Notes: generated by a model not told the origin, from the letters alone. 32,685 nucleotides of DNA from an uncultured Gammaproteobacteria bacterium (GCA_964413295.1 CAYPRN010000003.1:1-32685); one strand, 5' to 3'. Shown: positions 13,423 to 31,332, counted from the first letter of the stretch. Made by a program: numbers and translations.

Positions 13423-13462
13423 GTTTAGTTGATTAGTTACTTAGTTAATCAGTTGCTTAGTT
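13423..13462. repeat. left arm of inverted repeat enclosing the four-helix-bundle gene
   Basis: GTTTAGTTGATTAGTTACTTAGTTAATCAGTTGCTTAGTT (TTAGTTA word family). It partners 13818..13860. Confidence 0.6.
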
Positions 13463-13817
13463 TTTTATTGTTTACTGATTTTTTGTTTTTTAAAAACTTA
13501 ATATAACCGTTTATACCTTTTATTAATTCAATATATTTTTCTACAGTAAAATTTTTTTGATATGCTCTTTCAATTCCACTTTTTGTTTCTTCTGCTTCAC
13601 CTCTAGCTATATATAAATGATTTATTTTTGTACCAAATGAATATTTGCCATAACTTTCTGCAATATTATTTGGCACCGAAGAAGATGATCTTTTTAATTG
13701 ATCAATACTTCTATATTTTTCTTCTTTTGGAAATTTTTCATCGCAAACTCTATAAACAAAAACTTCTAATCTAACAGCCATTTTATAAATCTTTAAATTT
13801 TCTAAACCTGTAGCCAT
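13449..13817 (-). CDS. four-helix-bundle protein (23S rRNA intervening-sequence protein family)
   Basis: 122 aa. Family hallmarks: LKIYKMAVRLEVFVYRV...FPKEEKYRSIDQLKRSSSSVPNNIAESYG...ARGEAEE. Confidence 0.8.
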   Translation of the reverse strand: MATGLENLKIYKMAVRLEVFVYRVCDEKFPKEEKYRSIDQLKRSSSSVPNNIAESYGKYSFGTKINHLYIARGEAEETKSGIERAYQKNFTVEKYIELIKGINGYIKFLKNKKSVNNKKLSN

Positions 13818-16482: not shown

Positions 16483-16845
16483 TTATTTTCTCGCAACTTT
16501 ATCTAAATTATCAATCTCTTTCCAAAGCATAGCGCATAATTCTTCAGCCATCTCCAATCCTATAAGATAATTTTCTTTACTTAAATATTCTTCTATAAAA
16601 GAAAAATATAATAAATATTTTGATTCTTTCAAGGAACCGAAGGAAATCTCTAAAAAATTTAAACGTACTAATGGTTTTTTTCTAGCATAACCTTCAATAT
16701 AATTTAAAACGACTGATATAGATGCTCTGCGAATTTGTGAAACAACTCCATACAGCTCACTTTTTGGAAAATCTTTAGTAACTTTATAAACAAAATGTGC
16801 ATATTTGTCCATCTTTTCAACTAAACTTTTTTGATAACTATTCAT
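16483..16845 (-). CDS. four-helix-bundle protein (23S rRNA intervening-sequence protein family)
   Basis: From MNSYQKSLVEKMDKYAHFVYKVTKDFPKSELYGVVSQIRRASISVVLNYIEGYARK... (120 aa). The 41-codon N-terminal extension in the track is a translated repeat arm. Confidence 0.8.
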   Translation of the reverse strand: MNSYQKSLVEKMDKYAHFVYKVTKDFPKSELYGVVSQIRRASISVVLNYIEGYARKKPLVRLNFLEISFGSLKESKYLLYFSFIEEYLSKENYLIGLEMAEELCAMLWKEIDNLDKVARK

Positions 16846-16858
16846 AACAAGATTATTA

Positions 16859-17428
16859 TTACTTTTTCTTTGTTTTTTTGCTTTTTTGTTGTCTTGTTTT
16901 TTTATTGTCTTGTTTTTTTGCTTTTTTGACACTCTTCTTCGCCACACTAAAACTCCCCTCACTAGCATTTTCTAAATTCAAGAAATCTTTCACTTTCATT
17001 TCTATAGAATGATTTACACCACCAGAACTAAACACAGCTTTTTTGGTCTTTGCTAGAGCTTTATCTATAATCACTGGCAATTTATACAAATTACCAAAGG
17101 CGCTGACAGTTCCATTTTTTATTTTCAAAGCATCCTGCATAACTTTTTCCCCAGGAATTTTCACTACTTTTACATCTTTTTGTTTCAATTTGCTAACATT
17201 TTTTTTCACTTTTTCTAAGTCTAGATTCTTATTAGCCGGCAAAAGCACTAAAAAATAGTCTTTATCTGCTTTCACTACTAAAGACTTGGCAATCTCTTCT
17301 AATTTTTTCCCCATGGTCATAGCCACGTCATAGGCAGTATAGACTGTTTTATGCTCTATAATATCATATGGCACACCCGCTTTTTCTAAATATTTAATAA
17401 CTTTTTTTGGTAACTTTTTTTTAGACAT
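16859..17428 (-). CDS. YbaK/prolyl-tRNA-synthetase-associated (aminoacyl-tRNA deacylase) domain protein
   Basis: From MSKKKLPKKVIKYLEKAGVPYDIIEHKTVYTAYDVA...KSLVVKADKDYFLVLLPANKNLDLEKV...SGG. YbaK/EbsC-like layout. Start moved to 17428. Confidence 0.7.
   Translation of the reverse strand: MSKKKLPKKVIKYLEKAGVPYDIIEHKTVYTAYDVAMTMGKKLEEIAKSLVVKADKDYFLVLLPANKNLDLEKVKKNVSKLKQKDVKVVKIPGEKVMQDALKIKNGTVSAFGNLYKLPVIIDKALAKTKKAVFSSGGVNHSIEMKVKDFLNLENASEGSFSVAKKSVKKAKKQDNKKTRQQKSKKTKKK
16864..16928. repeat. right arm of inverted repeat, overlapping the 3' end of the ybaK-like CDS
   Basis: TTTTTCTTTGTTTTTTTGCTTTTTTGTTGTCTTGTTTTTTTATTGTCTTGTTTTTTTGCTTTTTTG. On the coding strand it encodes the Lys-rich tail KKAKKQDNKKTRQQKSKKTKKK. 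Confidence 0.6.
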
Positions 17429-17438
17429 ATATTTTATC

Positions 17439-17512
17439 GCGCAACACATAACATAAGAGCACATAACGCTAAATAATGGCATGTTATGCGTTACACGTTA
17501 TGCGTTATGTGT
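17439..17512. repeat. intercistronic word-hairpin (CATAACGC family)
   Basis: GCGCAACACATAACATAAGAGCACATAACGC-loop-GCATGTTATGCGTTACACGTTATGCGTTATGTGT. Same family as 20324..20400. Both lie about 10 nt upstream of a start codon. Confidence 0.65.
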
Positions 17513-17644
17513 ATATGTATTATACCCTAATTACCTATCTTAAGCAAAACCATTGACTTATTTTTAAAGTCATAATAACATTAGAGCTAATCCCGAGAGT
17601 TCGGGACTGTTTTTTAAAATTCCACAATCAATGGAGGATTGATT

Positions 17645-17848
17645 ATGAAGAAATTACTGATTATCACATTGTTAGTCTTAATATGCTTAATTATCATTCC
17701 AGAGATATTGAACACGGATGAGGCTAAAATTTCATCTAATCATAAAGATGAAAATTCGCCAAAAACTCCAAAGAAAAACGAATTTCCTTTGGCTACCATA
17801 CCAGTAGTACCAGAAATACCTAGACTAGATGGAAAAGAAAAATATTGA
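17645..17848 (+). CDS. small membrane-anchored/secreted protein
   Basis: 67 aa starting at ATG 17645, preceded by GGAGG at 7-nt spacing. N-terminal hydrophobic helix, then a polar Pro/Lys-rich tail. Confidence 0.45.
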   Translation: MKKLLIITLLVLICLIIIPEILNTDEAKISSNHKDENSPKTPKKNEFPLATIPVVPEIPRLDGKEKY

Positions 17849-17873
17849 CTTGTGGAAAAAATTTAGTTAAAAT
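17845..17873 (+). promoter_or_regulatory. near-consensus sigma70-like promoter
   Basis: TTGACT-17 nt-TAAAAT. It overlaps the stop codon of the preceding small gene. Confidence 0.55.
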
Positions 17874-18044
17874 AAAGACAGATAGTTCCTTACAACTAGT
17901 ATATTTACGCTACAAAAATTATGCTTCATTCTGCTTGAGAAAGGAGAATAGGAAGTTAAAGTATTTTTTCACAAGCATAAAGCGTAAACATGCTGGTATA
18001 TTCGACGACACATTCGATATTTGTGAAAGCACAGGAGAAAAATC

Positions 18045-18095
18045 ATGCCCACACATGGACCCCCCTCCGACAGTTTTTCAGTGATCGATTCCTAG
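18045..18095 (+). CDS. micro-ORF 1 (16 aa, MPTHGPPSDSFSVIDS), speculative
   Basis: AGGAGAAAAATCATG is a perfect SD plus spacer plus ATG. Confidence 0.25.
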   Translation: MPTHGPPSDSFSVIDS

Positions 18096-18394
18096 GCCGA
18101 ATGGCGGTGTGAACAATCATGCAACTAAATCTAAATGCTGTAAGTGGGGTTGCCCTAAGAGATGTTGCGGTATTGTAACACAATTCCATAACACCGAGGG
18201 AACCCTAACTAAAAACATATTTTTCGAGAATAGAAATTAATAGGAAAAGATTAGTCGGAAAAAACAGGTCAGACCCTAAAACTACAAGGGTGCCTGAAAA
18301 AATTAAAATTCCGCTGTCTTAAATTCTGCTAATTTCTGTTCACCTTGGTTATAACCCTCCGGAGATATTTCCCCTAAGAATAAGGAGAAAAATC

Positions 18395-18445
18395 ATGATA
18401 CGTGGTTCCCCTTTTACGAGCTTTTCGCTCTCTACGCTACGGTGA
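18395..18445 (+). CDS. micro-ORF 2 (16 aa, MIRGSPFTSFSLSTLR), speculative
   Basis: Same 14-nt SD/start module. The peptide aligns with micro-ORF 1 over xGxPxxSFS. Confidence 0.25.
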   Translation: MIRGSPFTSFSLSTLR

Positions 18446-18794
18446 TGATACTGTACTGATACTGTATAATTTTTCAACGGGATTTATGATCTTTTCGTAA
18501 AATCTAAATTCTGTTCACGAAAAATTCTAACATCGAGGTTAAAAATGCAACTGAAATATCCCAATTCCATGGTCATCTCTGCTTAAAACACTACATAGCA
18601 AGATGACCGGCAAAGATTATAGACATGCCTACGAATTCGCTGAATGCCAAAAAGGAGTAATTTCATACTACGAACAGGAAGATACGTAAAGGGAGATGGT
18701 TGAGAGGGGTGGTGACACTCCCTTAAACGCGAATAAAATTTCGCCCAGAAAATCGTGGCCAGAAAACCTCAAGATGAAAACTGGGAGAAAAATC

Positions 18795-18971
18795 ATGAAT
18801 CGAAAGTTCACTGATCGGACCGCTCGCGGAAGCCCGTCTTTGGCTTCCGCCGTCGTCCTCCAAAAAGAAAACGGTTCAACAACCGAAAACACTTCCACGT
18901 CCGGTGTCGTCGCCATTACTATAGATGGGATGACCGGTTTCGGGATCGACAAGAGAACCACCTACGTCTAA
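18795..18971 (+). CDS. small ORF 3 (58 aa from MNRKFTDRTARGSP...), speculative
   Basis: Same 14-nt SD/start module. It is the in-frame 3' part of track ORF 18696..18971. About 50% GC, and an antisense ORF of similar length is also open. Confidence 0.3.
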   Translation: MNRKFTDRTARGSPSLASAVVLQKENGSTTENTSTSGVVAITIDGMTGFGIDKRTTYV

Positions 18972-19014
18972 AAAAGATCAGACGAGGTCTAATCCCGTCA
19001 AGGAAGTACCACAA

Positions 19015-19053
19015 GGGGGCAACTTGCTAAAACTGCAAGCTCTGCCCCTTTTT
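19015..19053 (+). terminator. strong intrinsic terminator
   Basis: GGGGCAACTTGC-TAAAACT-GCAAGCTCTGCCCC followed by T5. Confidence 0.7.
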
Positions 19054-19066
19054 AATTTTCTACCTA

Positions 19067-19151
19067 CTGTCATTGCGAGCCGTAGGCGAAGCAATCCCGT
19101 GAGAAATATTGAAATATTCACGAGATCGTGTCGCTTCGCTCGCGATGACAG
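19067..19151. repeat. GTCATTGCGAG...CGCGATGAC palindromic repeat
   Basis: CTGTCATTGCGAGCCGTAGGCGAAGCAATCCCGTGAG...CACGAGATCGTGTCGCTTCGCTCGCGATGACAG. Confidence 0.75.
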
Positions 19152-19227
19152 TGAACCACAAAAGAACGCTTTACAACGTTCTTTTTTTATTTATTATTTT
19201 ATTATTCTAGAAAAAATCCATTCCTTT

Positions 19228-19326
19228 TGTCATTCCGGGCGTAGTGAAGCGAAGACCCGGAATCCAGAAAATATATATAAAAAAACAAATTTTTATTTCT
19301 GGATTCCCGCTTTCGCGGGAATGACA
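19228..19326. repeat. GTCATTCCGGG...CGGGAATGAC palindromic repeat
   Basis: TGTCATTCCGGGCGTAGTGAAGCGAAGACCCGGAATCCAGAAA...TTTCTGGATTCCCGCTTTCGCGGGAATGACA. Track ORFs 19024..19350 and 19202..19411 are translations of these repeats. Confidence 0.75.
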
Positions 19327-19379
19327 ATAAAGCATAGAACAGTAGTGTAAAACAAAAAAATTTAGAAATGACAGTTAAT

Positions 19380-20315
19380 TTAAAACCTAACCGGCATTGG
19401 CTGTTTTTCATTATTATCTAAAGCTTTCTTTTCTATACATTGATACCCAGCATCATGCTCCCAGTTGCTGGCAAAATAATCTTTGCTTTCATAAGGATCA
19501 TTATCGTTAATATTAGATCGCTGAAAATCAGTGCAAAGTTCATATTTTTTCGTATCTAATATTTTAAACTCAAATATCTTCTTAGTTATTGGATTTCTTA
19601 AATCATCTTCAGCAATGTAATCTACTGCTTCTTTGACTGCTTCTAATGATTCTGGTAATTTATTCTCTTCAGTATAATATTGCTGGACAGCGTTTTCAAT
19701 AATGCTTAAGCGATTAACAACTTCATTATCAAAACGCTTTGCTCTGGCTTCCAATGGCGACTCTACAAATAAAATTCCGCCGATAAAAATTAATGCCGAT
19801 AAAATAATTACTGCGAATAAATAAATTTTATTAACTTTATTTTTTTCTCCTTCAATTTTTTCTCGCTTAATATCATGCAAATAATAATAAAAAATAGCTC
19901 CGGCAATAATTAGCACTGTCAATGCTTTTAAAATAAATTTTAAAGTCAATTCTCCATTTAAAAAATTAAAAATCGTGCCGATTGCCCATCCACCCATGGT
20001 TAAGGCAGTCACTAAAATTATCAAATAAGTCAGCCATTTTCTGATCGCTGAATCTTTGTCTAAAACGCCTGTAAATAAATTTTTATTTATCTGCCAGGCG
20101 GTCGTCAGATAAACCGGGGCCGAAACAATCATCGCGGCAATGGCATAGCGCAATAAATTAACATCATAGCGCATACTGTAATTTTCTACGATATCGGCGA
20201 TATTTTTATTAATAACCTGAAAGACAACCACGCCGGCAAAAATAGCGAAAAATGCTAACGACACTAGTGATAGCAAATATAAAAATGTAAACTTGGCTGT
20301 ATTGTTGTTTGACAT
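19380..20315 (-). CDS. multi-pass membrane protein with soluble C-terminal domain, function unknown
   Basis: 311 aa from MSNNNTAKF. About five hydrophobic helices, then a Cys-containing C-terminal domain. Possibly DUF5671-like, but that is my recollection only. Confidence 0.55.
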   Translation of the reverse strand: MSNNNTAKFTFLYLLSLVSLAFFAIFAGVVVFQVINKNIADIVENYSMRYDVNLLRYAIAAMIVSAPVYLTTAWQINKNLFTGVLDKDSAIRKWLTYLIILVTALTMGGWAIGTIFNFLNGELTLKFILKALTVLIIAGAIFYYYLHDIKREKIEGEKNKVNKIYLFAVIILSALIFIGGILFVESPLEARAKRFDNEVVNRLSIIENAVQQYYTEENKLPESLEAVKEAVDYIAEDDLRNPITKKIFEFKILDTKKYELCTDFQRSNINDNDPYESKDYFASNWEHDAGYQCIEKKALDNNEKQPMPVRF

Positions 20316-26842: not shown

Positions 26843-27790
26843 TTATCTGTAAATTAAAAAACCGATATATAAAATATATAAAATTATAAAAACATACCCT
26901 TCCCATCTTTCCAATATTCTTTTTTTGTTGGTGTAAAGGGCGACGAGTAATAATATTGTTGCCACGCCGGCCACCAAAATATCAAAATTTAAATTAGCGG
27001 AAAATTCAACCGGCCGAATTAAAGCGCTGACTCCCAATATCCAAAATATCCTAAAAATATTGGAGCCGACCACATTCCCGACAGCAATATCGGTTTTTCC
27101 TTTATAAGTGGCTACACCAGAAGCCGCCAATTCCGGCAAAGAAGTGCCGATGGCGATAACTGTCAGCCCTATGACAGATTCTTTGATTTTTAAAAATTGG
27201 GCTAGCTGGACCGCTCCGTCCACAATCCATTTTCCTCCTAAAATTAATAAAGCGCATCCGCCTAAAATCATCAATGCTGATTTTAAACGTTTATGCCCTT
27301 TAGCAGGTGTCCTCCGCCCTTTTATATGCATGGCGCCAGCGACCGAATATAAAAAAATAATAAAGAAAAAAATTAAAATTAAACCATCGCCCCGGCTTAA
27401 AATATTAAACGGCTCATGAGTGATGAATTTATCATTGACCAAAACCGCTAAAACAACAACCGCTAATAAGCTTAACGGAATTTGACGACTGACTGTCGCC
27501 ACATTGACCGTCAACGGGGTTATTAAAGCGGCTGTCCCTAAAATAAGCAAAATATTGGCAATATTGCTGCCTAAAATAGTGCCAACGACTATGCCGGAGC
27601 GCCCCTCAATACTGGCTATTAAATTAACAAATAATTCCGGCGCTGAAGTGCCAAAAGCAACAATAGTCAAACCGATAAAAAACGATGTCCAGCCAAGCTG
27701 TTTAGCTATAGAAGATGCTCCCTCCACTAAATAATCAGCCCCCTTAATCAATACTACAAAACCGAGGATAAATAAAATATATATCAGCAT
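26843..27790 (-). CDS. Ca2+/cation antiporter (CaCA, YrbG-like), paralogue 2
   Basis: 315 aa, collinear with the neighbouring paralogue (same GTSAPELFVN / GTSLPELAAS motifs). Confidence 0.85.
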   Translation of the reverse strand: MLIYILFILGFVVLIKGADYLVEGASSIAKQLGWTSFFIGLTIVAFGTSAPELFVNLIASIEGRSGIVVGTILGSNIANILLILGTAALITPLTVNVATVSRQIPLSLLAVVVLAVLVNDKFITHEPFNILSRGDGLILIFFFIIFLYSVAGAMHIKGRRTPAKGHKRLKSALMILGGCALLILGGKWIVDGAVQLAQFLKIKESVIGLTVIAIGTSLPELAASGVATYKGKTDIAVGNVVGSNIFRIFWILGVSALIRPVEFSANLNFDILVAGVATILLLVALYTNKKRILERWEGYVFIILYILYIGFLIYR

Positions 27791-28018
27791 AACTATAATT
27801 GATAGATTATATGTTTATCATAGCATATTCAAGCTATATTTGAAAATTTTTGTAAAAAAATAAAACCCAGTGGATGGGCTATTTTTTACTACTTGCCTTG
27901 CCGTAGTTTTAGTGTAGGCAGGTCACGGTTTTACGGCGTATCCAAGTTCGTAGATAGAAGACTACTTATGTGCTACGTTTTATTTTCGTGGTATTTAATT
28001 TACGCTGTGGACAAGCTA

Positions 28019-28046
28019 TTGATATTTTTAACAAATTTGCTATACT
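28019..28046 (+). promoter_or_regulatory. sigma70-like promoter
   Basis: TTGATA-16 nt-TATACT. Confidence 0.4.
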
Positions 28047-28052
28047 ATAAGT

Positions 28053-28101
28053 GTATTTGGGGAAAGGCGCCGACCGTTAGGACGGTGGCTTTTTTCTTTT
28101 T
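28053..28101 (+). ncRNA. candidate ~45-nt small RNA (promoter directly followed by terminator)
   Basis: GUGUAUUUGGGGAAAGGC-GCCGACCGU-UAGG-ACGGUGGC-UUUUUUCUUUUU. Convergent with the DUF3800 gene and ends about 12 nt from its stop codon. Confidence 0.3.
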
Positions 28102-28112
28102 AATAACTAATA

Positions 28113-28915
28113 TTAGCTATTTTTATACTCTAAAGGCAATCTTTGTTTTAAATCTTTATTAACAAAAATATTAAATTTTTTATTACGAAACCCTTCAGTA
28201 AAATTTTTAACTCCTAAATTTTCTTTAATAAATTTAACTAATTCCTTCTTATTTTTATCTCCCTTATTAATAATGTTAGTTGCCATTTTTAAATCATAAT
28301 TAATTGCCCCAATAAAAAGATCAACAACCTGCAATAAATCATTTCCTCTTGAATCAAATCGGCATACTCCGATCATAACTAAGCGTCTAGCATTTCTATT
28401 AATTGTATTTTTTACTCCAACCTCATAATAAACATTTTTTGGAGTTGTTACGTGGTCAGCTAATAATATTAAAATCTCATTAGGACTTAAGGCTGATTCA
28501 GCTAAACGAATTGAAATTTCTTCATAAGCTGTCCACGGATTACCATTAAATTCTCTTTGAAAATAATTACCATGTTTGTCTACTGTATAAGAATAAAACC
28601 ATATACTTTTAGTATCCAAAAAAGCATCAATAGCAAATTTAGCAAAATCAATATTACGCCTAGATAATTTATTAAATTTCATTTCATCATGAAAATTTCT
28701 CTTATTTCTCTCATAAACTAATTTGCTATACAAATAATATGGTTTTGGCTACATTTAATTAAATCTACCGTGAAAAATGGAGCAGTTTTTGGATCTAAAC
28801 TCCCACTTTCATCAAAAAAACAAAACTTAGTCCAAATTTTATTATATTCTTTCAATTTCAGCTCTCCTGTTGAATCTACATTATCATGATCTTTATTTTT
28901 TCTTTTAAAAAACAT
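28113..28915 (-). pseudogene. DUF3800 family protein, split by a frameshift at an A4 run
   Basis: Track ORFs 28718..28915 (FFDESGS motif) and 28113..28733 (HDEMKF, LLQVVDLFIGAI motifs) are the N- and C-terminal parts of one DUF3800-type protein. The frames overlap at 28734..28748 around CCAAAACC. Confidence 0.65.
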
Positions 28916-28981
28916 ATTTTTAATATTTTTAATTTATTTCTCTAATCTTTAGTCTAACTCTCAAAAATACTAAAGTCAAAT

Positions 28982-29016
28982 AAAAAAGCCGTAATTTGTA
29001 AATTAAAATCACGGCT
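28982..29016 (-). terminator. intrinsic terminator after ORF 29049..29315
   Basis: The RNA reads AGCCGUGAUUUUAAUUUACAAAUUACGGCU followed by U6. Confidence 0.55.
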
Positions 29017-29048
29017 TGGATATTTTAACAAAACTATCTTGTTTTATT

Positions 29049-29315
29049 TCACCAAAAAATAACTAAAATATCCCCACCAAATTCTGGTTTCACCTCACTA
29101 TCAGAACAAAAGAATCTGTTTTTTATTTCTTCGGCCACTTCTTCTGATTTCACAACTCCTGTAATAATGACTGATCCGTTTTTATAATTTTTTACCGGAG
29201 TTCTACATCCAAATTCATTAAAAGCCACTTCTACTTCCATAATATAATCGCAACTCGCCACTTGCCCGTTGTCAGGATTTCTTACTTCAACTGTTACTTT
29301 TGTTTTTTTGCTCAT
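29049..29315 (-). CDS. small protein, island paralogue C (88 aa), function unknown
   Basis: Strong SD (AAAGGAGAAAGAACATG). Its N-terminus KVTVEVRNP resembles EVSVEFVERP of ORF 30456..30830. Its C-terminus LVIFW resembles CVFWP of ORF 29643..29903. Confidence 0.55.
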   Translation of the reverse strand: MSKKTKVTVEVRNPDNGQVASCDYIMEVEVAFNEFGCRTPVKNYKNGSVIITGVVKSEEVAEEIKNRFFCSDSEVKPEFGGDILVIFW

Positions 29316-29375
29316 GTTCTTTCTCCTTTACCCCGTGCCTTTCTTAAAAGGCTGGGTTGACTTAAATTAAAGAAC

Positions 29376-29411
29376 AAAAAAAACTGGCTCCCGCCGTTAA
29401 GCGGAAGCCAG
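29376..29411 (-). terminator. attenuator terminator (regions 3:4)
   Basis: The RNA reads CUGGCUUCCGC-UUAACG-GCGGGAGCCAG (11 bp) followed by U8, between the leader peptide and ORF 29049..29315. Confidence 0.65.
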
Positions 29412-29437
29412 TCTTGTTTCCCTAATGATGTTTTACT

Positions 29438-29539
29438 TTATTTTTGTGGCAAAACACCACCAAAACCTACACTTCCGCTTTTGCGGAAACCATAAAACCC
29501 AAAAAAGTTAAATGTAGATTTTGCTAGTGTCTTATTCAT
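29438..29539 (-). CDS. candidate leader peptide, 33 aa, Phe-rich (MNKTLAKSTFNFFGFYGFRKSGSVGFGGVLPQK)
   Basis: Hand-translated ORF starting about 4-11 nt after the -10 box, so possibly leaderless. Five Phe and one Tyr within codons 10-18. It overlaps the region 1:2 hairpin. Confidence 0.4.
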   Translation of the reverse strand: MNKTLAKSTFNFFGFYGFRKSGSVGFGGVLPQK

Positions 29540-29542
29540 ACC

Positions 29543-29591
29543 TGTGGATATATTAACATATATTTTTAAAAAGCGCAAGAGGTTATCCACA
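29543..29591 (-). promoter_or_regulatory. promoter bracketed by an inverted repeat of DnaA-box-like 8-mers
   Basis: Minus strand reads TTGCGC-17 nt-TAATAT (29578..29550). TGTGGATA (29543..29550) and TATCCACA (29584..29591) flank it. Confidence 0.5.
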
Positions 29592-29636
29592 AAAAAGAAA
29601 ATAGCCGTTTTTTCAATAGAAAATAACGGCTATTTT
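29591..29636 (-). terminator. intrinsic terminator after ORF 29643..29903
   Basis: The RNA reads AAAUAGCCGUU-loop-AACGGCUAUUU followed by UCUUUUUU. Confidence 0.6.
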
Positions 29637-29642
29637 AATAAA

Positions 29643-29903
29643 CTAAAGTACATGATTAAATCTTTTTGGCCAAAACACACAATCTGCTATTTCCACTTCT
29701 TCAGGATCAAGACCTAACGCTATAATAGCGCCATTAATCGCTTTCTTTTTTGCTATTTCTTCATCTTCATCAACGGCGCTACCGCTACATGACTCTTTTT
29801 TGCCTTCAGGACTAACAACCACACCAACTCTCCATTGTTCTCCATCAGGTCTAATATTACCATCTGTAATTCTCACTACTGTTTTCTCTTCAATAGCGCT
29901 CAT
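29643..29903 (-). CDS. small protein, island paralogue B (86 aa), function unknown
   Basis: Start set at MSAIEEK (29903), which has GGAGGTG at 5-nt spacing. The longer track version would translate the 33-nt palindrome. Shares the SGxx..A.K.AI.GA motif with ORF 30456..30830. Confidence 0.6.
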   Translation of the reverse strand: MSAIEEKTVVRITDGNIRPDGEQWRVGVVVSPEGKKESCSGSAVDEDEEIAKKKAINGAIIALGLDPEEVEIADCVFWPKRFNHVL

Positions 29904-29934
29904 AATTTCACCTCCGTTTGTTTGATTATTTTTT

Positions 29935-29967
29935 CTTGTCCGATAAGCAAATTGCTTATCGGACAAG
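29935..29967. repeat. 33-nt palindrome, copy 2 (31 nt upstream of the paralogue B start)
   Basis: CTTGTCCGATAAGCAAATTGCTTATCGGACAAG, with perfect 15-bp arms. Confidence 0.85.
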
Positions 29968-30032
29968 CTGACCTACTATCCTTGAAGTACCATTAATTCC
30001 TGTACCGCGCCAGTCAATTTTTTTCCCGTCTT

Positions 30033-30218
30033 TCACATGCACAAAATCAGGCCATTCAAAATTTGATCCGCCTTTTTTGATTCAACTAAAAACTTTATTC
30101 CCGGCGCGTTCAGCCCTTGCGCATATTCTTCAGCAGTAGATAAATTAGGAAATGTAGCCTGTAAAAAAGCCTCACTTGACTTTGAAGTAACTCTATAAAC
30201 AGCTGTAGGATGTCCCAT
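30033..30218 (-). CDS. small hypothetical protein (61 aa)
   Basis: Strong SD (AAAGGAGAAGAAAAATG). Third gene of the three-gene operon. Confidence 0.45.
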   Translation of the reverse strand: MGHPTAVYRVTSKSSEAFLQATFPNLSTAEEYAQGLNAPGIKFLVESKKADQILNGLILCM

Positions 30219-30232
30219 TTTTCTTCTCCTTT

Positions 30233-30454
30233 CTAAGAAGAAATAATAGTGAAAGGATCAATATTTCTTACAATGGCAGGTATTATTCTTTTCTGCAAGT
30301 CCTTAAGGTGAAATTGTAGTGATTCTCTTTTCCCTGAAGCAATTTTTTTTTGCGACAGCTTTTCTTCTATCGCTGTCGCCTGATCGCAACAACGTAGATA
30401 CTTGTCATACAAAACATCTGAACCGTTTAATCCTGATTCTTTATTTGCGCTCAT
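30233..30454 (-). CDS. small helical hypothetical protein (73 aa)
   Basis: Strong SD (AAGGAGAAATAAAATG). Its start lies 1 nt after the stop of the upstream ORF, which suggests translational coupling. Confidence 0.5.
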   Translation of the reverse strand: MSANKESGLNGSDVLYDKYLRCCDQATAIEEKLSQKKIASGKRESLQFHLKDLQKRIIPAIVRNIDPFTIISS

Positions 30455-30455
30455 T

Positions 30456-30830
30456 TTATTTCTCCTTCTTGCCCCGTCCTTTCGTGAGAGGCGAGGTTTT
30501 GGTTAGCTTTTTACAAATTTTATCAATGCCGCCATTTAAACGCTTACTTCCATGCCCATTCTTTGAGAAAGAAAACTTAATGTCACAAAAGTCTTTTTTA
30601 CCTATCAAACTTAATGCCCCTGCGATCGCATCCTTTAATGCCTGCTGAACATCTTTTCCTTCTCCACTCCACCGCACCTTAAAACTCCTTTTTTCAGAAA
30701 TTAATTTAACGCAAATATTCACATTGACAGTTTGACTGCCTCTTTTTACACTTCCGTTTCTACTGATAACCTTTTCAAAAAAAGGCCTTTCTACAAACTC
30801 TACACTTACTTCATTTTTCTCATCTGACAT
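30456..30830 (-). CDS. small protein, island paralogue A (124 aa) with basic C-terminal tail
   Basis: Strong SD (GAGGGAGGACGAACATCATG). Contains WSGEGKDVQQALKDAIAGALSLIG and the tail KKLTKTSPLTKGRGKKEK. Confidence 0.6.
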   Translation of the reverse strand: MSDEKNEVSVEFVERPFFEKVISRNGSVKRGSQTVNVNICVKLISEKRSFKVRWSGEGKDVQQALKDAIAGALSLIGKKDFCDIKFSFSKNGHGSKRLNGGIDKICKKLTKTSPLTKGRGKKEK

Positions 30831-30862
30831 GATGTTCGTCCTCCCTCTGTTTTGTTATTTTT

Positions 30863-30895
30863 CTTGTTCGATAAGCAATTTGCTTGTCGGACAAG
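30863..30895. repeat. 33-nt palindrome, copy 3 (32 nt upstream of the paralogue A start)
   Basis: CTTGTTCGATAAGCAATTTGCTTGTCGGACAAG. Confidence 0.85.
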
Positions 30896-30896
30896 T

Positions 30897-30925
30897 ATAT
30901 TATTTTGTTAATGTACAACTGTCAT
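30897..30925 (-). promoter_or_regulatory. sigma70-like promoter of the three-gene small-protein operon
   Basis: Minus strand reads ATGACA-17 nt-TAATAT. The -10 box ends 1 nt before the palindrome, so transcription should start inside it. Confidence 0.4.
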
Positions 30926-30984
30926 TTTATTTTTATCTTTTTGTCCTTTTTGTATTAAAAGGTAAAATTAATTAAAGATCAATT

Positions 30985-31010
30985 TAAAAAAGCCATCTCT
31001 TGGATGGCTC
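30985..31010 (-). terminator. intrinsic terminator after the mini-peptide pair
   Basis: The RNA reads AGCCAUC-CAAGA-GAUGGCU followed by U6. The plus-strand side is also T-rich. Confidence 0.6.
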
Positions 31011-31035
31011 TTTATTTTTTATTTTATTTAAACTT

Positions 31036-31128
31036 TTATGTATTTAGCCATCCAAAATAATCCTTAGTAAGTACTAAGGCAATAAGCATTAAGATGACTA
31101 AAATATTATTTTTTATAATTAAATTCAT
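31036..31128 (-). CDS. candidate hydrophobic mini-peptide (30 aa, MNLIIKNNILVILMLIALVLTKDYFGWLNT)
   Basis: Hand-translated. One TM-length hydrophobic stretch, no SD. Lies 7 nt after the upstream mini-ORF. Confidence 0.3.
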   Translation of the reverse strand: MNLIIKNNILVILMLIALVLTKDYFGWLNT

Positions 31129-31135
31129 ATTTTTA

Positions 31136-31255
31136 TTATTCTTCATCACCGTCATCCTTTGTCATAAAAAACTTAGCGATTATCACGCAAAAAGCCGTTA
31201 TTAGAGTGGCTATTAAAACGATTGGCTTATTAACGGTTTTAGCTAATTTCTTCAT
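31136..31255 (-). CDS. candidate hydrophobic mini-peptide (39 aa, MKKLAKTVNKPIVLIATLITAFCVIIAKFFMTKDDGDEE)
   Basis: Hand-translated. One TM helix with basic N- and acidic C-termini. An alternative in-frame ATG lies at 31264. Confidence 0.35.
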   Translation of the reverse strand: MKKLAKTVNKPIVLIATLITAFCVIIAKFFMTKDDGDEE

Positions 31256-31332
31256 AAAAATCATTGAAAGTTTATCCTAAATTCAAATTAATATTAAGCA
31301 ATAATATAATAGCTTTAAACTTAAATCCTTAT

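Follow-up and report, generated by a model that had tools for sequence, protein, structure and literature searches.

Several described systems resemble parts of the small-gene cluster reported here. The closest in fold are the dsRBD and the uS5 N-domain, with which cluster proteins A and B share three predicted strands, a G-x-G and then a helix starting A-x-K-x-A-I (the β3-α2 junction), and the RNase H-like core (β1-β2-β3-α1-β4), whose order recurs in B. HicB N-domains reportedly have this same fold type, an RNase H-like β-β-β-α-β core. REP elements of Proteobacteria are the nearest counterpart of a 33-nt palindrome in the cluster, −1 frameshifting of the dnaX/IS911 type that of a heptamer in gene E, and DUF3800 (PF12686)/PDC-M04 that of a neighbouring gene.

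We analysed the cluster within a window of 32,685 nucleotides, by which we mean the whole stretch of DNA. The host genome is the chromosome of an uncultivated Candidatus Falkowbacteria member (CPR/Patescibacteria). The five small ORFs of the original prediction (A, B, C and two ORFs of 73 and 61 aa, here D and E) were all recovered by ORF calling where they had been placed, all on the minus strand (Table 1), and direct reading confirmed their strong Shine-Dalgarno (SD) sites, with GGAGG/AAGGAG 5-9 nt 5′ of the ATG in each. As had also been stated, the cluster lies between ndk and two Na_Ca_ex genes and adjoins a DUF3800-like gene; the neighbours further comprise aspS, recO, ruvX, map, adk, FBA, TIM and ScpAB. 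Overall, this is an ordinary cluster of orphan genes with some curious side features.

Table 1. Features of the cluster and its neighbour, with positions counted from the first letter of the window.
Feature	Position	Strand	Description
Promoter-like site ATGACA-17-TAATAT	30897-30925	−	5′ of A; consensus scan, 9/12 matches
Palindrome copy 1, 33 nt	30863-30895		CTTGTCCGACAAGCAAATTGCTTATCGAACAAG on minus strand; between promoter and SD of A
ORF A	30456-30830	−	124 aa, pI 10, net charge +14 (+13.6 computed), orphan protein
In-frame insertion, 30 nt	30468-30497	−	Hairpin-forming; adds TSPLTKGRGK to the C-terminus of A, just 5′ of the SD of D
ORF D	30233-30454	−	73 aa; helical by prediction; TAAAATG junction couples its translation to that of A
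ORF E, short form	30033-30218	−	61 aa
Heptamer A_AAA_AAG	30072-30078	−	tcA_AAA_AAG, zero frame of E; E lacks 1 nt at this point compared with the sister strains
−1-frame continuation of E	29956-30071	−	GGSNFEWPDFVHVKDGKKIDWRGTGINGTSRIVGQLVR, then stop; ends inside palindrome copy 2
Palindrome copy 2, 33 nt	29935-29967		Perfect; inserted between E and B
ORF B	29643-29903	−	86 aa, acidic, pI 4.7, charge −6.4, orphan protein
Terminator-like hairpin and T-run after B	29598-29636	−	Inverted repeat, 16-nt arms, 94% complementary
Small transcription unit	29372-29578	−	Promoter, structured ~170-nt RNA, 33-codon ORF and terminator
Promoter of RNA unit	29550-29578	−	TTGCGC-17-TAATAT with TGn
33-codon ORF	29438-29539	−	Phe/Gly-rich, without SD, inside the ~170-nt RNA
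Terminator of RNA unit	29380-29415	−	Strong; terminator scan
Hairpin-forming insertion, ~30 nt	29332-29361	−	Between terminator and SD of C; fold −12.2 kcal/mol
ORF C	29049-29315	−	88 aa, acidic, orphan protein
Terminator-like hairpin after C	28986-29017	−	Terminator scan
DUF3800-like gene	28113-28915	−	Frameshift giving a 65-aa N-terminal piece with DESG motif and a 206-aa piece

Orthologues were found at loci L001 and L021, and for A also at L013, with length and order conserved. Comparison with related genomes, those of two or three sister strains of Ca. Falkowbacteria, revealed the same synteny and the same borders with the housekeeping flanks, and the divergence among the strains was mosaic. 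Relative to the sister strains, dN/dS was 0.19 for A, 0.21 for D, 0.41/0.22 for E, 0.28 for B and 0.57 for C, the highest of the five; for comparison, the adjacent CaCA genes showed 0.09-0.11. D is 96% identical to L001 at the nucleotide level, and its dS is only 0.11. The conserved order in the sister strains, together with dN/dS of 0.19-0.57, identifies all five ORFs as genuine protein-coding genes under purifying selection. Among 5.8 billion proteins, A, B and C each had exactly one homologue, in the sister MAG (72% identity for A); a full HMMER search with B over 1.84 billion representatives returned B itself only, and D fell in a 90% cluster with a Falkowbacteria MAG protein. Pfam, NCBIfam, PHROGs, PADLOC, the PDB and viral contigs gave no significant match for the cluster proteins. 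In these sequence comparisons the five genes are lineage-specific orphans, kept in order and between the same flanks in the sister strains and undetectable elsewhere. The earlier description of an accessory module of unknown role stands in part and gains a very narrow lineage; its paralogy and its phage, plasmid, defence or anti-defence origin found no support.

The tight coupling noted earlier between A and the 73-aa ORF was evident in their TAAAATG junction. In L001 and L021, E′ overlaps B′ (ATGA), and the consensus scans revealed neither a terminator nor a promoter match in the E-B interval. Since A and D are coupled, E′ and B′ overlap and the first terminator comes after B, A-D-E-B form one operon, which is followed by a separate unit for a structured RNA or 33-codon leader, with its own terminator, and then by C. 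According to the original prediction, a promoter and a terminator belong to each transcription unit; terminators indeed follow B, the RNA unit and C, but nothing of the kind separates E from B, and for C the consensus scan, whose consensus may not apply to CPR bacteria, detected no separate promoter. Judged by its consensus match, the promoter-like site 5′ of A is likely the promoter of the operon; its −10 hexamer is not conserved in L001. About 28 nt lie between the terminator T-run and the ATG of C′ in L001 and L021. Going by the promoter scans, transcription of C may depend on read-through at the terminator of the small RNA upstream.

The RNA unit between B and C is ~96% identical in nucleotides to L001 and L021. 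Its ~170-nt RNA folds with a minimum free energy of −80.1 kcal/mol, compared with −49.7 ± 4.3 kcal/mol for shuffles (z −7.1), and Rfam, at gathering and E-value thresholds, contained no family for this unit or the rest of the cluster. A Phe-type leader-peptide attenuator acting over C was suggested by the FNFFGFYGF stretch of the small ORF and by the repeated segments TTCCGC/GCGGAAG/CTTCCGC/GCGGGAG, and alternative pairings do exist in the folding. However, folds constrained to imitate stalled ribosomes leave the terminator completely formed, the match to the Rfam Phe_leader model reached 18 bits where the gathering score is 55, and no covariation was found; attenuator control of C by a Phe-rich leader is not supported. 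A pair of DnaA boxes around the small-RNA promoter was likewise dismissed, as the window contains 9 such boxes where 9.4 would be expected by chance.

The 33-nt palindrome is present in two copies in the window, compared with 0 expected. Copy 1 (RNA hairpin of −12.7 kcal/mol) is present in L013, and no palindrome precedes A in L001 or L021. These two loci, with their overlapping E and B, also lack copy 2 (−24.1 kcal/mol, z −6.9). The element was found in ~10 distinct contexts, only on Falkowbacteria contigs from a few metagenome samples, and a copy 5′ of adk in L009 and L021 is missing in the window, which constitutes a presence/absence polymorphism. An operator specific to A and B was rejected because the same element stands at unrelated sites elsewhere, namely after stop codons, between convergent genes and 5′ of adk. 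By its distribution, the palindrome belongs to a small dispersed REP-like repeat whose presence differs from strain to strain. Similar to REP elements, it is a near-perfect palindrome at intergenic or gene-end sites, differs in presence between strains and forms a stable RNA/DNA hairpin. In contrast, it is known at only ~10 sites, whereas REPs number in the hundreds; some of its copies lie within ORF 3′ ends or in frame inside an ORF (L015, L018), and its host is a CPR bacterium. A shorter core of the palindrome was also matched in other phyla, on one Rhodococcus and one Clostridia contig, by different, longer or terminator-like hairpins that share the core only, and we judged these matches to be unrelated. 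Pfam revealed no Y1_Tnp (RAYT) match among the scanned window ORFs of at least 90 aa (a few, e.g. 16859-17482, were left out), and a full-text literature search returned no report of REPs in Patescibacteria.

Two further hairpin-forming insertions were observed. The insertion in A corresponds to a gap in the L001 alignment and resembles a hairpin 5′ of A′ in L001 (644-677), and the one preceding C is an alignment gap in L001 and L021. We discounted a repeat family of such hairpin-plus-SD mini-insertions, as neither the window nor 24 loci contained any more copies. If the hairpin repeats have a role, it would be limited to mRNA stability or decoupling.

In the sister strains, E is a single frame of ~96 aa. 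The short form found here recurs unchanged in seven other contigs, whose assemblies come from several different samples. The −1 frame is open for 38 further codons past the heptamer, to 29956, so that E would have 61 or ~87 aa; the −1-frame product aligns colinearly with E as read in frame in L021 and L001, with a dN/dS of 0.22 in the −1 frame, and the palindrome replaced the last ~15 codons. As in −1 frameshifting of the dnaX/IS911 type, the A_AAA_AAG heptamer occupies the zero frame where the frames diverge, and a −1 slip would restore the conserved, colinear C-terminal half. In contrast to those systems, the heptamer has no SD-like stimulator upstream and no convincing hairpin nearby, only weak ones of −3 to −6 kcal/mol within 60 nt downstream, and the frameshift is not conserved, as L001 and L021 encode E in one frame. 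A simple, recent loss of 1 nt accounts for the data just as well as programmed frameshifting does, and E would be either a freshly broken gene or one rescued by −1 frameshifting.

The AF2 models of A (pLDDT 45, order β-β-β-β-α-β-α) and B (pLDDT 58, predicted β-β-β-α-β) had low confidence because their alignments contained only two sequences each. Foldseek with the A model (TM ~0.2, E>0.4) was meaningless at pLDDT 45. With the B model it returned the RNase HI core and dsRBDs (E 0.03-0.12, TM ~0.41), matches that may be meaningless at pLDDT 58, and a PDB profile search aligned 50 residues of B with the uS5m N-domain at a below-threshold E of 0.87. Every structural or profile match for A and B was sub-threshold, and Pfam gave no match at E≤1, including dsRBD (PF00035). 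For A and B, the dsRBD-like impression formed earlier is echoed only by the sub-threshold uS5m and Foldseek matches of B. Both models (pLDDT 45/58) show β-β-β-α(-β) without the α1 helix of the dsRBD, the dsRBD matches lie at E>0.1 and B is strongly acidic. The top PDB Foldseek match of B is the RNase HI core (E 0.03, TM 0.41, from a model of pLDDT 58), but the catalytic DEDD residues are not evident, and unlike HicB, B has no HicA partner, DNA-binding domain or family HMM match.

By analogy with these folds, the very basic A and the acidic B may share a β-β-β-helix(-β) core with a G-x-G...A-x-K-x-A-I-x-G-A helix cap, reminiscent of the dsRBD, the uS5 N-domain and the RNase H core. If so, A would most plausibly be a small protein that binds nucleic acid (RNA), and the operon would supply D, E and B as its small partner proteins, with B perhaps serving as acidic counterpart or as modulator. 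Taken jointly with the read-through of C and the minor role of the hairpins, this picture is doubtful. B itself is less likely to bind nucleic acid, given the DEDEE run that we also observed at its helix cap.

Other explanations of the cluster were weighed against this evidence. It is hardly credible that some or all of the ORFs are chance ORFs in AT-rich intergenic DNA: this would fit the lack of homologues beyond the lineage, the low AF2 confidence, the frameshift in E and the high dN/dS of C, but length, frame and SD are kept in the sister strains at dS 0.1-0.8 with dN/dS<0.6, indels are multiples of three (e.g. the 30-nt insertion in A), and start and stop codons are closely coupled. The original prediction saw in A, B and C three paralogues of a locally expanded small β-β-β-GxG-helix family, which we consider improbable. 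Its N-terminal strings are present, although two were swapped (KVTVEVRNP belongs to C and KTVVRITDGN to B), and the terminal hydrophobic-FW motif ascribed to B and C fails because the FW of B is not C-terminal. BLASTP revealed nothing for A-B or A-C at E≤100 and for B-C a sole three-residue match, VFW/IFW (E=1.2). In Smith-Waterman comparison with 5000 shuffles, A-C (p=0.87) and B-C (p=0.27) were at shuffle level, the orthologues behaved similarly (0.2-0.87), and hhalign gave P~0.17-0.18 for both pairs. The SGxx pattern of A and B is real as a segment (A 54-78, B 41-65), but only a 24-residue SGxG...AxKxAIxGA motif is common to them; the similarity is borderline (hhalign P=0.003, probability 10%; Smith-Waterman shuffle p 0.005-0.057, about 0.06 at most, over six orthologue pairs) and loses significance after correction for the ten pairs compared. 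The predicted secondary-structure elements of A and B are colinear and both weak models (pLDDT 45 and 58) contain β-β-β-α-β, an order that is also plausible for C when judged by eye only, but it is very common among small proteins. On their sequences, A, B and C are not three demonstrable paralogues.

An accessory cassette of phage or plasmid origin, with an anti-defence, defence or regulatory role, was originally suggested; that such a cassette inserted beside a DUF3800 defence-candidate gene appears unlikely. The genes are small orphans that evolve faster than their neighbours, the mosaic strain divergence suggests recombination, PHROG matches occur below threshold (E 0.016), and the best BFVD matches of the weak B model are uncharacterised actinophage proteins of 72-74 aa (E 0.007-0.009, TM 0.56-0.69). 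The DUF3800-like gene matches the PADLOC candidate PDC-M04A (2.2e-16) and phrog_3732 (2.5e-13). However, unlike PDC-M04, this neighbour is frameshifted, with its pieces in different frames and more degraded in L001 and L021, and no PADLOC model is matched by any of the five small proteins. In every strain the neighbour is a pseudogene, and it forms a separate transcription unit that has a promoter-like site of its own and is divided from C by a terminator. Moreover, PHROG and PADLOC gave no match at E≤0.01 for any of the five proteins, IMG/VR viral contigs and the 50,697 phage genomes of INPHARED contained no relatives, GC is normal (0.35 in the cluster, 0.29-0.39 elsewhere on the contig), the borders are identical in three strains and carry no integrase, att repeats or tRNA. 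Flanking direct repeats (D2, D7) were considered as att sites and judged to be chance, being AT-rich, 78-94% identical and in one case within a coding region. The cluster is chromosomal and not a recognisable phage or defence cassette. A toxin-antitoxin-like pair, such as a basic toxin A with an acidic HicB-like antitoxin B or the coupled D, would account for small, coupled genes of opposite charge and for the RNase HI β-β-β-α-β core, the fold type of HicB N-domains, among the best PDB matches of the B model. This is very improbable, as Pfam and NCBIfam at E≤1 and PADLOC gave no toxin-antitoxin family match, the cluster lacks a HicA-like ORF, B has no DNA-binding domain, no HicB structure is among its top 50 Foldseek matches, two genes separate A from B, and the operon has four genes rather than a pair.

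On balance, the cluster is probably best explained as lineage-restricted, genuine and non-paralogous genes, comprising the operon A-D-E-B, a structured-RNA unit and C. That these parts form an undescribed small-protein/RNA system peculiar to these episymbiotic CPR bacteria, for example a new RNA-binding regulator or an addiction/defence-type module, with expression shaped by a CPR-specific mobile REP-like hairpin and −1 frameshifting of E, would be quite improbable. CPR/Patescibacteria genomes are full of lineage-specific hypothetical genes, and as one more example the cluster changes little alone. It is, however, a well-delimited test case, with five small, clearly expressed-looking orphans under purifying selection and three strain variants to compare. 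It also offers a small RNA that is both structured and conserved, a mobile palindrome of 33 nt whose insertions are polymorphic, and E as a gene freshly broken or else rescued by −1 frameshifting. If true, a REP-like mobile palindrome or a programmed frameshift in E would be among the rare documented cases in CPR bacteria.

The five small ORFs (A to E) were all found where the original prediction had placed them, on the minus strand, and direct reading of the sequence confirmed their strong Shine-Dalgarno (SD) sites, with GGAGG or AAGGAG located 5-9 nt before each ATG. The stop codon of A was coupled to the start codon of D within TAAAATG. The contig derives from the chromosome of a CPR bacterium with low GC, and the neighbouring genes were aspS, recO, ruvX, map, adk, two Na_Ca_ex genes (CaCA), ndk, a response regulator gene, FBA, TIM and ScpA/B. 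A protein near-identical to D and the sole homologues of A, B and C all came from Candidatus Falkowbacteria MAGs. Directly upstream of the cluster, we observed two overlapping hydrophobic ORFs (42 and 39 aa), each with one predicted TM-like segment, which were ~95% conserved in the sister strains L001 and L013; in the sister strains, 39 nt are inserted into the second ORF. Two genes located among housekeeping genes matched the 23S rRNA-intervening-sequence protein family PF05635, and one of them was also bAvd-like. Additionally, GC was locally elevated in a ~1.9-kb stretch (0.42 at 18-19 kb), in which no more than three ORFs reached 90 aa; all three were short, and two overlapped each other on opposite strands. 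An Rfam search of this stretch gave nothing at E<0.1.

Features of the small-protein cluster and its surroundings (window positions unless a related contig is named)
Feature	Position	Strand	Remarks
ORF A	30830..30456	minus	124 aa
ORF D	30454..30233	minus	73 aa
ORF E	30218..30033	minus	61 aa
ORF B	29903..29643	minus	86 aa
ORF C	29315..29049	minus	88 aa
Promoter-like site			ATGACA-17-TAATAT; before A
Heptamer in E	30078..30072	minus	A_AAA_AAG
-1 frame of E	30071-29956	minus
End of A-D-E-B operon	29636..29598		hairpin and T-run
Small unit	29372-29578	minus	unannotated, highly conserved; missed by the original prediction
Small-unit terminator	29415..29380		strong
DUF3800-like gene	28113-28915	minus	frameshift-split; matches phrog_3732 and PADLOC PDC-M04A
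Palindrome	30863-30895		between promoter and SD of A
Palindrome	29935-29967		between E and B
Palindrome, related contigs	L009 235-265; L012 6307-6337; L013 347-377		also in L014, L015, L017, L018, L020, L024
~30-nt hairpin-forming insertions	30468-30497; 29332-29361		directly before SD sequences
Similar sequence	L001 644-677		upstream of A'
~150-nt insertion	L001 440-600		upstream of A'
Hydrophobic ORFs	31036-31264	minus	42 and 39 aa
PF05635 genes	13449-13817; 16483-16968	minus
Stretch with raised GC	17482-19380		~1.9 kb

In the sister strain L001 (GCA_043811275.1), the order A'-D'-E'-B'-small unit-C'-DUF3800 remnants-CaCA-CaCA (primes denoting orthologues) and the flanks were as in the window, while L021 and L013, which came from a common sample, represented one further strain variant. 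The pairwise dN/dS values against L001 were 0.19 for A, 0.21 for D, 0.41 for E (N-terminal part), 0.28 for B and 0.57 for C; these values identify the ORFs as coding and under constraint, and it is extremely improbable that they are non-genes. The cluster ORFs evolve faster than the housekeeping genes, with values of 0.09-0.11 for the CaCA genes. The divergence between the window and L001/L021 across 27700-31300 was strongly mosaic. In particular, the nucleotide identity between strains was ~96-97% in D and in the segment of the B 3' end and small RNA and ~80% in A, E and C, and the CaCA genes showed a dS of 0.5-0.7. L021 was identical to L001 from B onward and differed in its E allele. This mosaic divergence and the mixture of alleles in L021 suggested frequent recombination among co-occurring strains.

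The cluster had originally been read as an accessory module, for example a regulatory, anti-defence or defence cassette derived from a phage or plasmid. Relatives of the cluster were found neither in IMG/VR viral contigs nor in 50,697 phage genomes, its borders lacked an integrase, a tRNA and any convincing att repeat, and its GC (0.35) was equal to that of the remainder of the contig. The cluster is thus lineage-specific with no sign of a recently acquired mobile cassette, and a phage-derived, defence or anti-defence origin is unlikely. The adjacent DUF3800-like gene carried an additional frameshift and a 3' deletion in L001 and L021; together with its frameshift in the window, this damage marks it as a decaying defence-candidate gene.

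Between A, D, E and B, we found no match to a terminator or a promoter, and the stop codon of E' overlapped the start codon of B' (ATGA) in L001 and L021; A-D-E-B therefore constitutes a single operon. The proposal that each unit has its own promoter and terminator held for the promoter-like site at A and the terminator after B, but not for C, which had no promoter match of its own. The small unit between B and C possessed a promoter of the form TTGCGC-17-TAATAT with a TGn extension (extended -10), and its ~170 nt folded at -80.1 kcal/mol versus -49.7 +/- 4.3 kcal/mol for shuffles over 230 nt (z -7.1). It contained a 33-codon Phe/Gly-rich ORF without an SD sequence, was ~96% identical in the sister strains and matched no Rfam family. 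A Phe-type attenuator was considered for this unit and was unsupported. The distance from its terminator to the start of C was 65 nt in the window and ~28 nt in the sister strains; as C lacked a promoter match, it is probably expressed by read-through of this terminator.

The sequence CTTGTCCGAYAAGCAAWTTGCTTATCGRACAAG was present in two copies in the window versus none expected. It belongs to a dispersed element, a 33-nt near-perfect palindrome (CTTGTCCGAYAAGCAAWTTGCTTRTCGGACAAG) usually adjoined by AAA, for which about 10 distinct, unrelated positions were found; the contigs carrying it were all Falkowbacteria-like, low in GC and from a few samples, and its presence or absence differed between strains. 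Neither window copy had a counterpart at its orthologous position in L001 or L021, where A' was preceded by a different hairpin and E' ran into B'. A copy upstream of adk in related contigs had an empty counterpart in the window. Of the other copies, some lay between convergent genes adjacent to rpoC, some immediately followed a stop codon and some fell within the 3' end of an ORF. A search of viral contigs found none. In its behaviour, the palindrome resembles a small dispersed repeat of REP-like type that is polymorphic for insertion, and not an operator coupling A and B. Its RNA hairpins (-24 and -13 kcal/mol) could affect mRNA stability. A full-text literature search revealed no report of REPs in Patescibacteria. 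We also observed ~30-nt hairpin-forming insertions, one of which extends A in frame by 10 C-terminal residues (TSPLTKGRGK); upstream of A' in L001 lay a similar sequence (CTCACGA..GGGGCAAGAAGGAG), and the available loci yielded no additional copies. In L001, A' is also preceded by an insertion of ~150 nt that is absent from the window; it contains internal inverted repeats (GAAGTCCCGACGTTTCGGGACGAAG ... TCGTCCCGAGGCGTCGGGAC) and looks MITE-like.

E comprised 61 aa in the window and ~96 aa in the sister strains. Compared with L021 and L001, it lacked one nucleotide exactly at tcA_AAA_AAG, and seven further contigs, assembled from several different samples, had this identical sequence. A_AAA_AAG is the classical dnaX/IS911 slippery sequence. 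A -1 slip gives ...SKKGGSNFEWPDFVHVKDGKK..., colinear with the in-frame L021 sequence ...AERGGLNFEWPDFVHVKDGKK..., and restores the conserved C-terminal half (predicted junction peptide, ...FLVESKKGGSNFEWPDF...); the part in the -1 frame showed a dN/dS of 0.22. No stimulatory elements were found around the heptamer, and the final ~15 codons of E have given way to the palindrome. E is a candidate for either programmed -1 frameshifting or a recent inactivating deletion.

A, B and C had been proposed as three paralogues. BLASTP at E<=100 gave no match for A-B or A-C and only VFW/IFW for B-C. Local alignment against 5000 shuffles gave p=0.87 for A-C, p=0.27 for B-C and p=0.007 for A-B; with the sister-strain orthologues, p was 0.005-0.057 for A-B and 0.2-0.87 for the other pairs. 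Profile-profile comparison found nothing for B-C or A-C and aligned WSGEGKDVQQALKDAIAGALSLIG of A with GSAVDEDEEIAKKKAINGAIIALG of B, the segment noticed originally (P 0.003, probability 10%). In sequence, C is therefore unrelated, the A-B similarity is a borderline motif resemblance that is lost after multiple-comparison correction, and a true three-member family is quite unlikely. The N-terminal strings given for B and C had been interchanged (KVTVEVRNP belongs to C and KTVVRITDGN to B), and the terminal FW motif was confirmed in C but is not terminal in B.

None of the five proteins had a match better than E~0.02 in Pfam, NCBIfam, PHROG or PADLOC. Among 5.8 billion proteins, A, B and C had exactly one homologue each (72, 77 and 68% identity), all in one sister MAG, and a full HMMER profile search of 1.84 billion cluster representatives with B returned B alone. 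PDB sequence searches gave noise at E>0.1 throughout; the sole suggestive match was B with the dsRBD-like N-domain of mitoribosomal uS5 (E 0.87). From two-sequence alignments, AlphaFold2 predicted a b-b-b-b-a-b-a topology for A (pLDDT 45) and b-b-b-a-b for B (pLDDT 58). Foldseek matches of the A model were rejected as meaningless. For the B model, no match reached E<=0.001; in the PDB, the RNase HI core and some dsRBDs ranked best (E 0.03-0.12, TM~0.41), and the best viral matches were uncharacterised actinophage proteins of 72-74 aa (E 0.007-0.009). A was very basic (pI 10, charge +14), and B and C were acidic (pI 4.7 and 4.9).

The most likely functional reading, itself weak and tentative, is that A, with a possible dsRBD/uS5-like b-b-b-helix core, would bind nucleic acid and that D, E and B may act as its partners; a toxin-antitoxin-like module is very improbable. 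Taken together, the locus comprises an operon of small soluble proteins that is under constraint and confined to one lineage, together with C and a unit with a structured RNA. The ORFs are real; as a cluster of orphan genes in a CPR genome they are ordinary, apart from a few curious features at its side.
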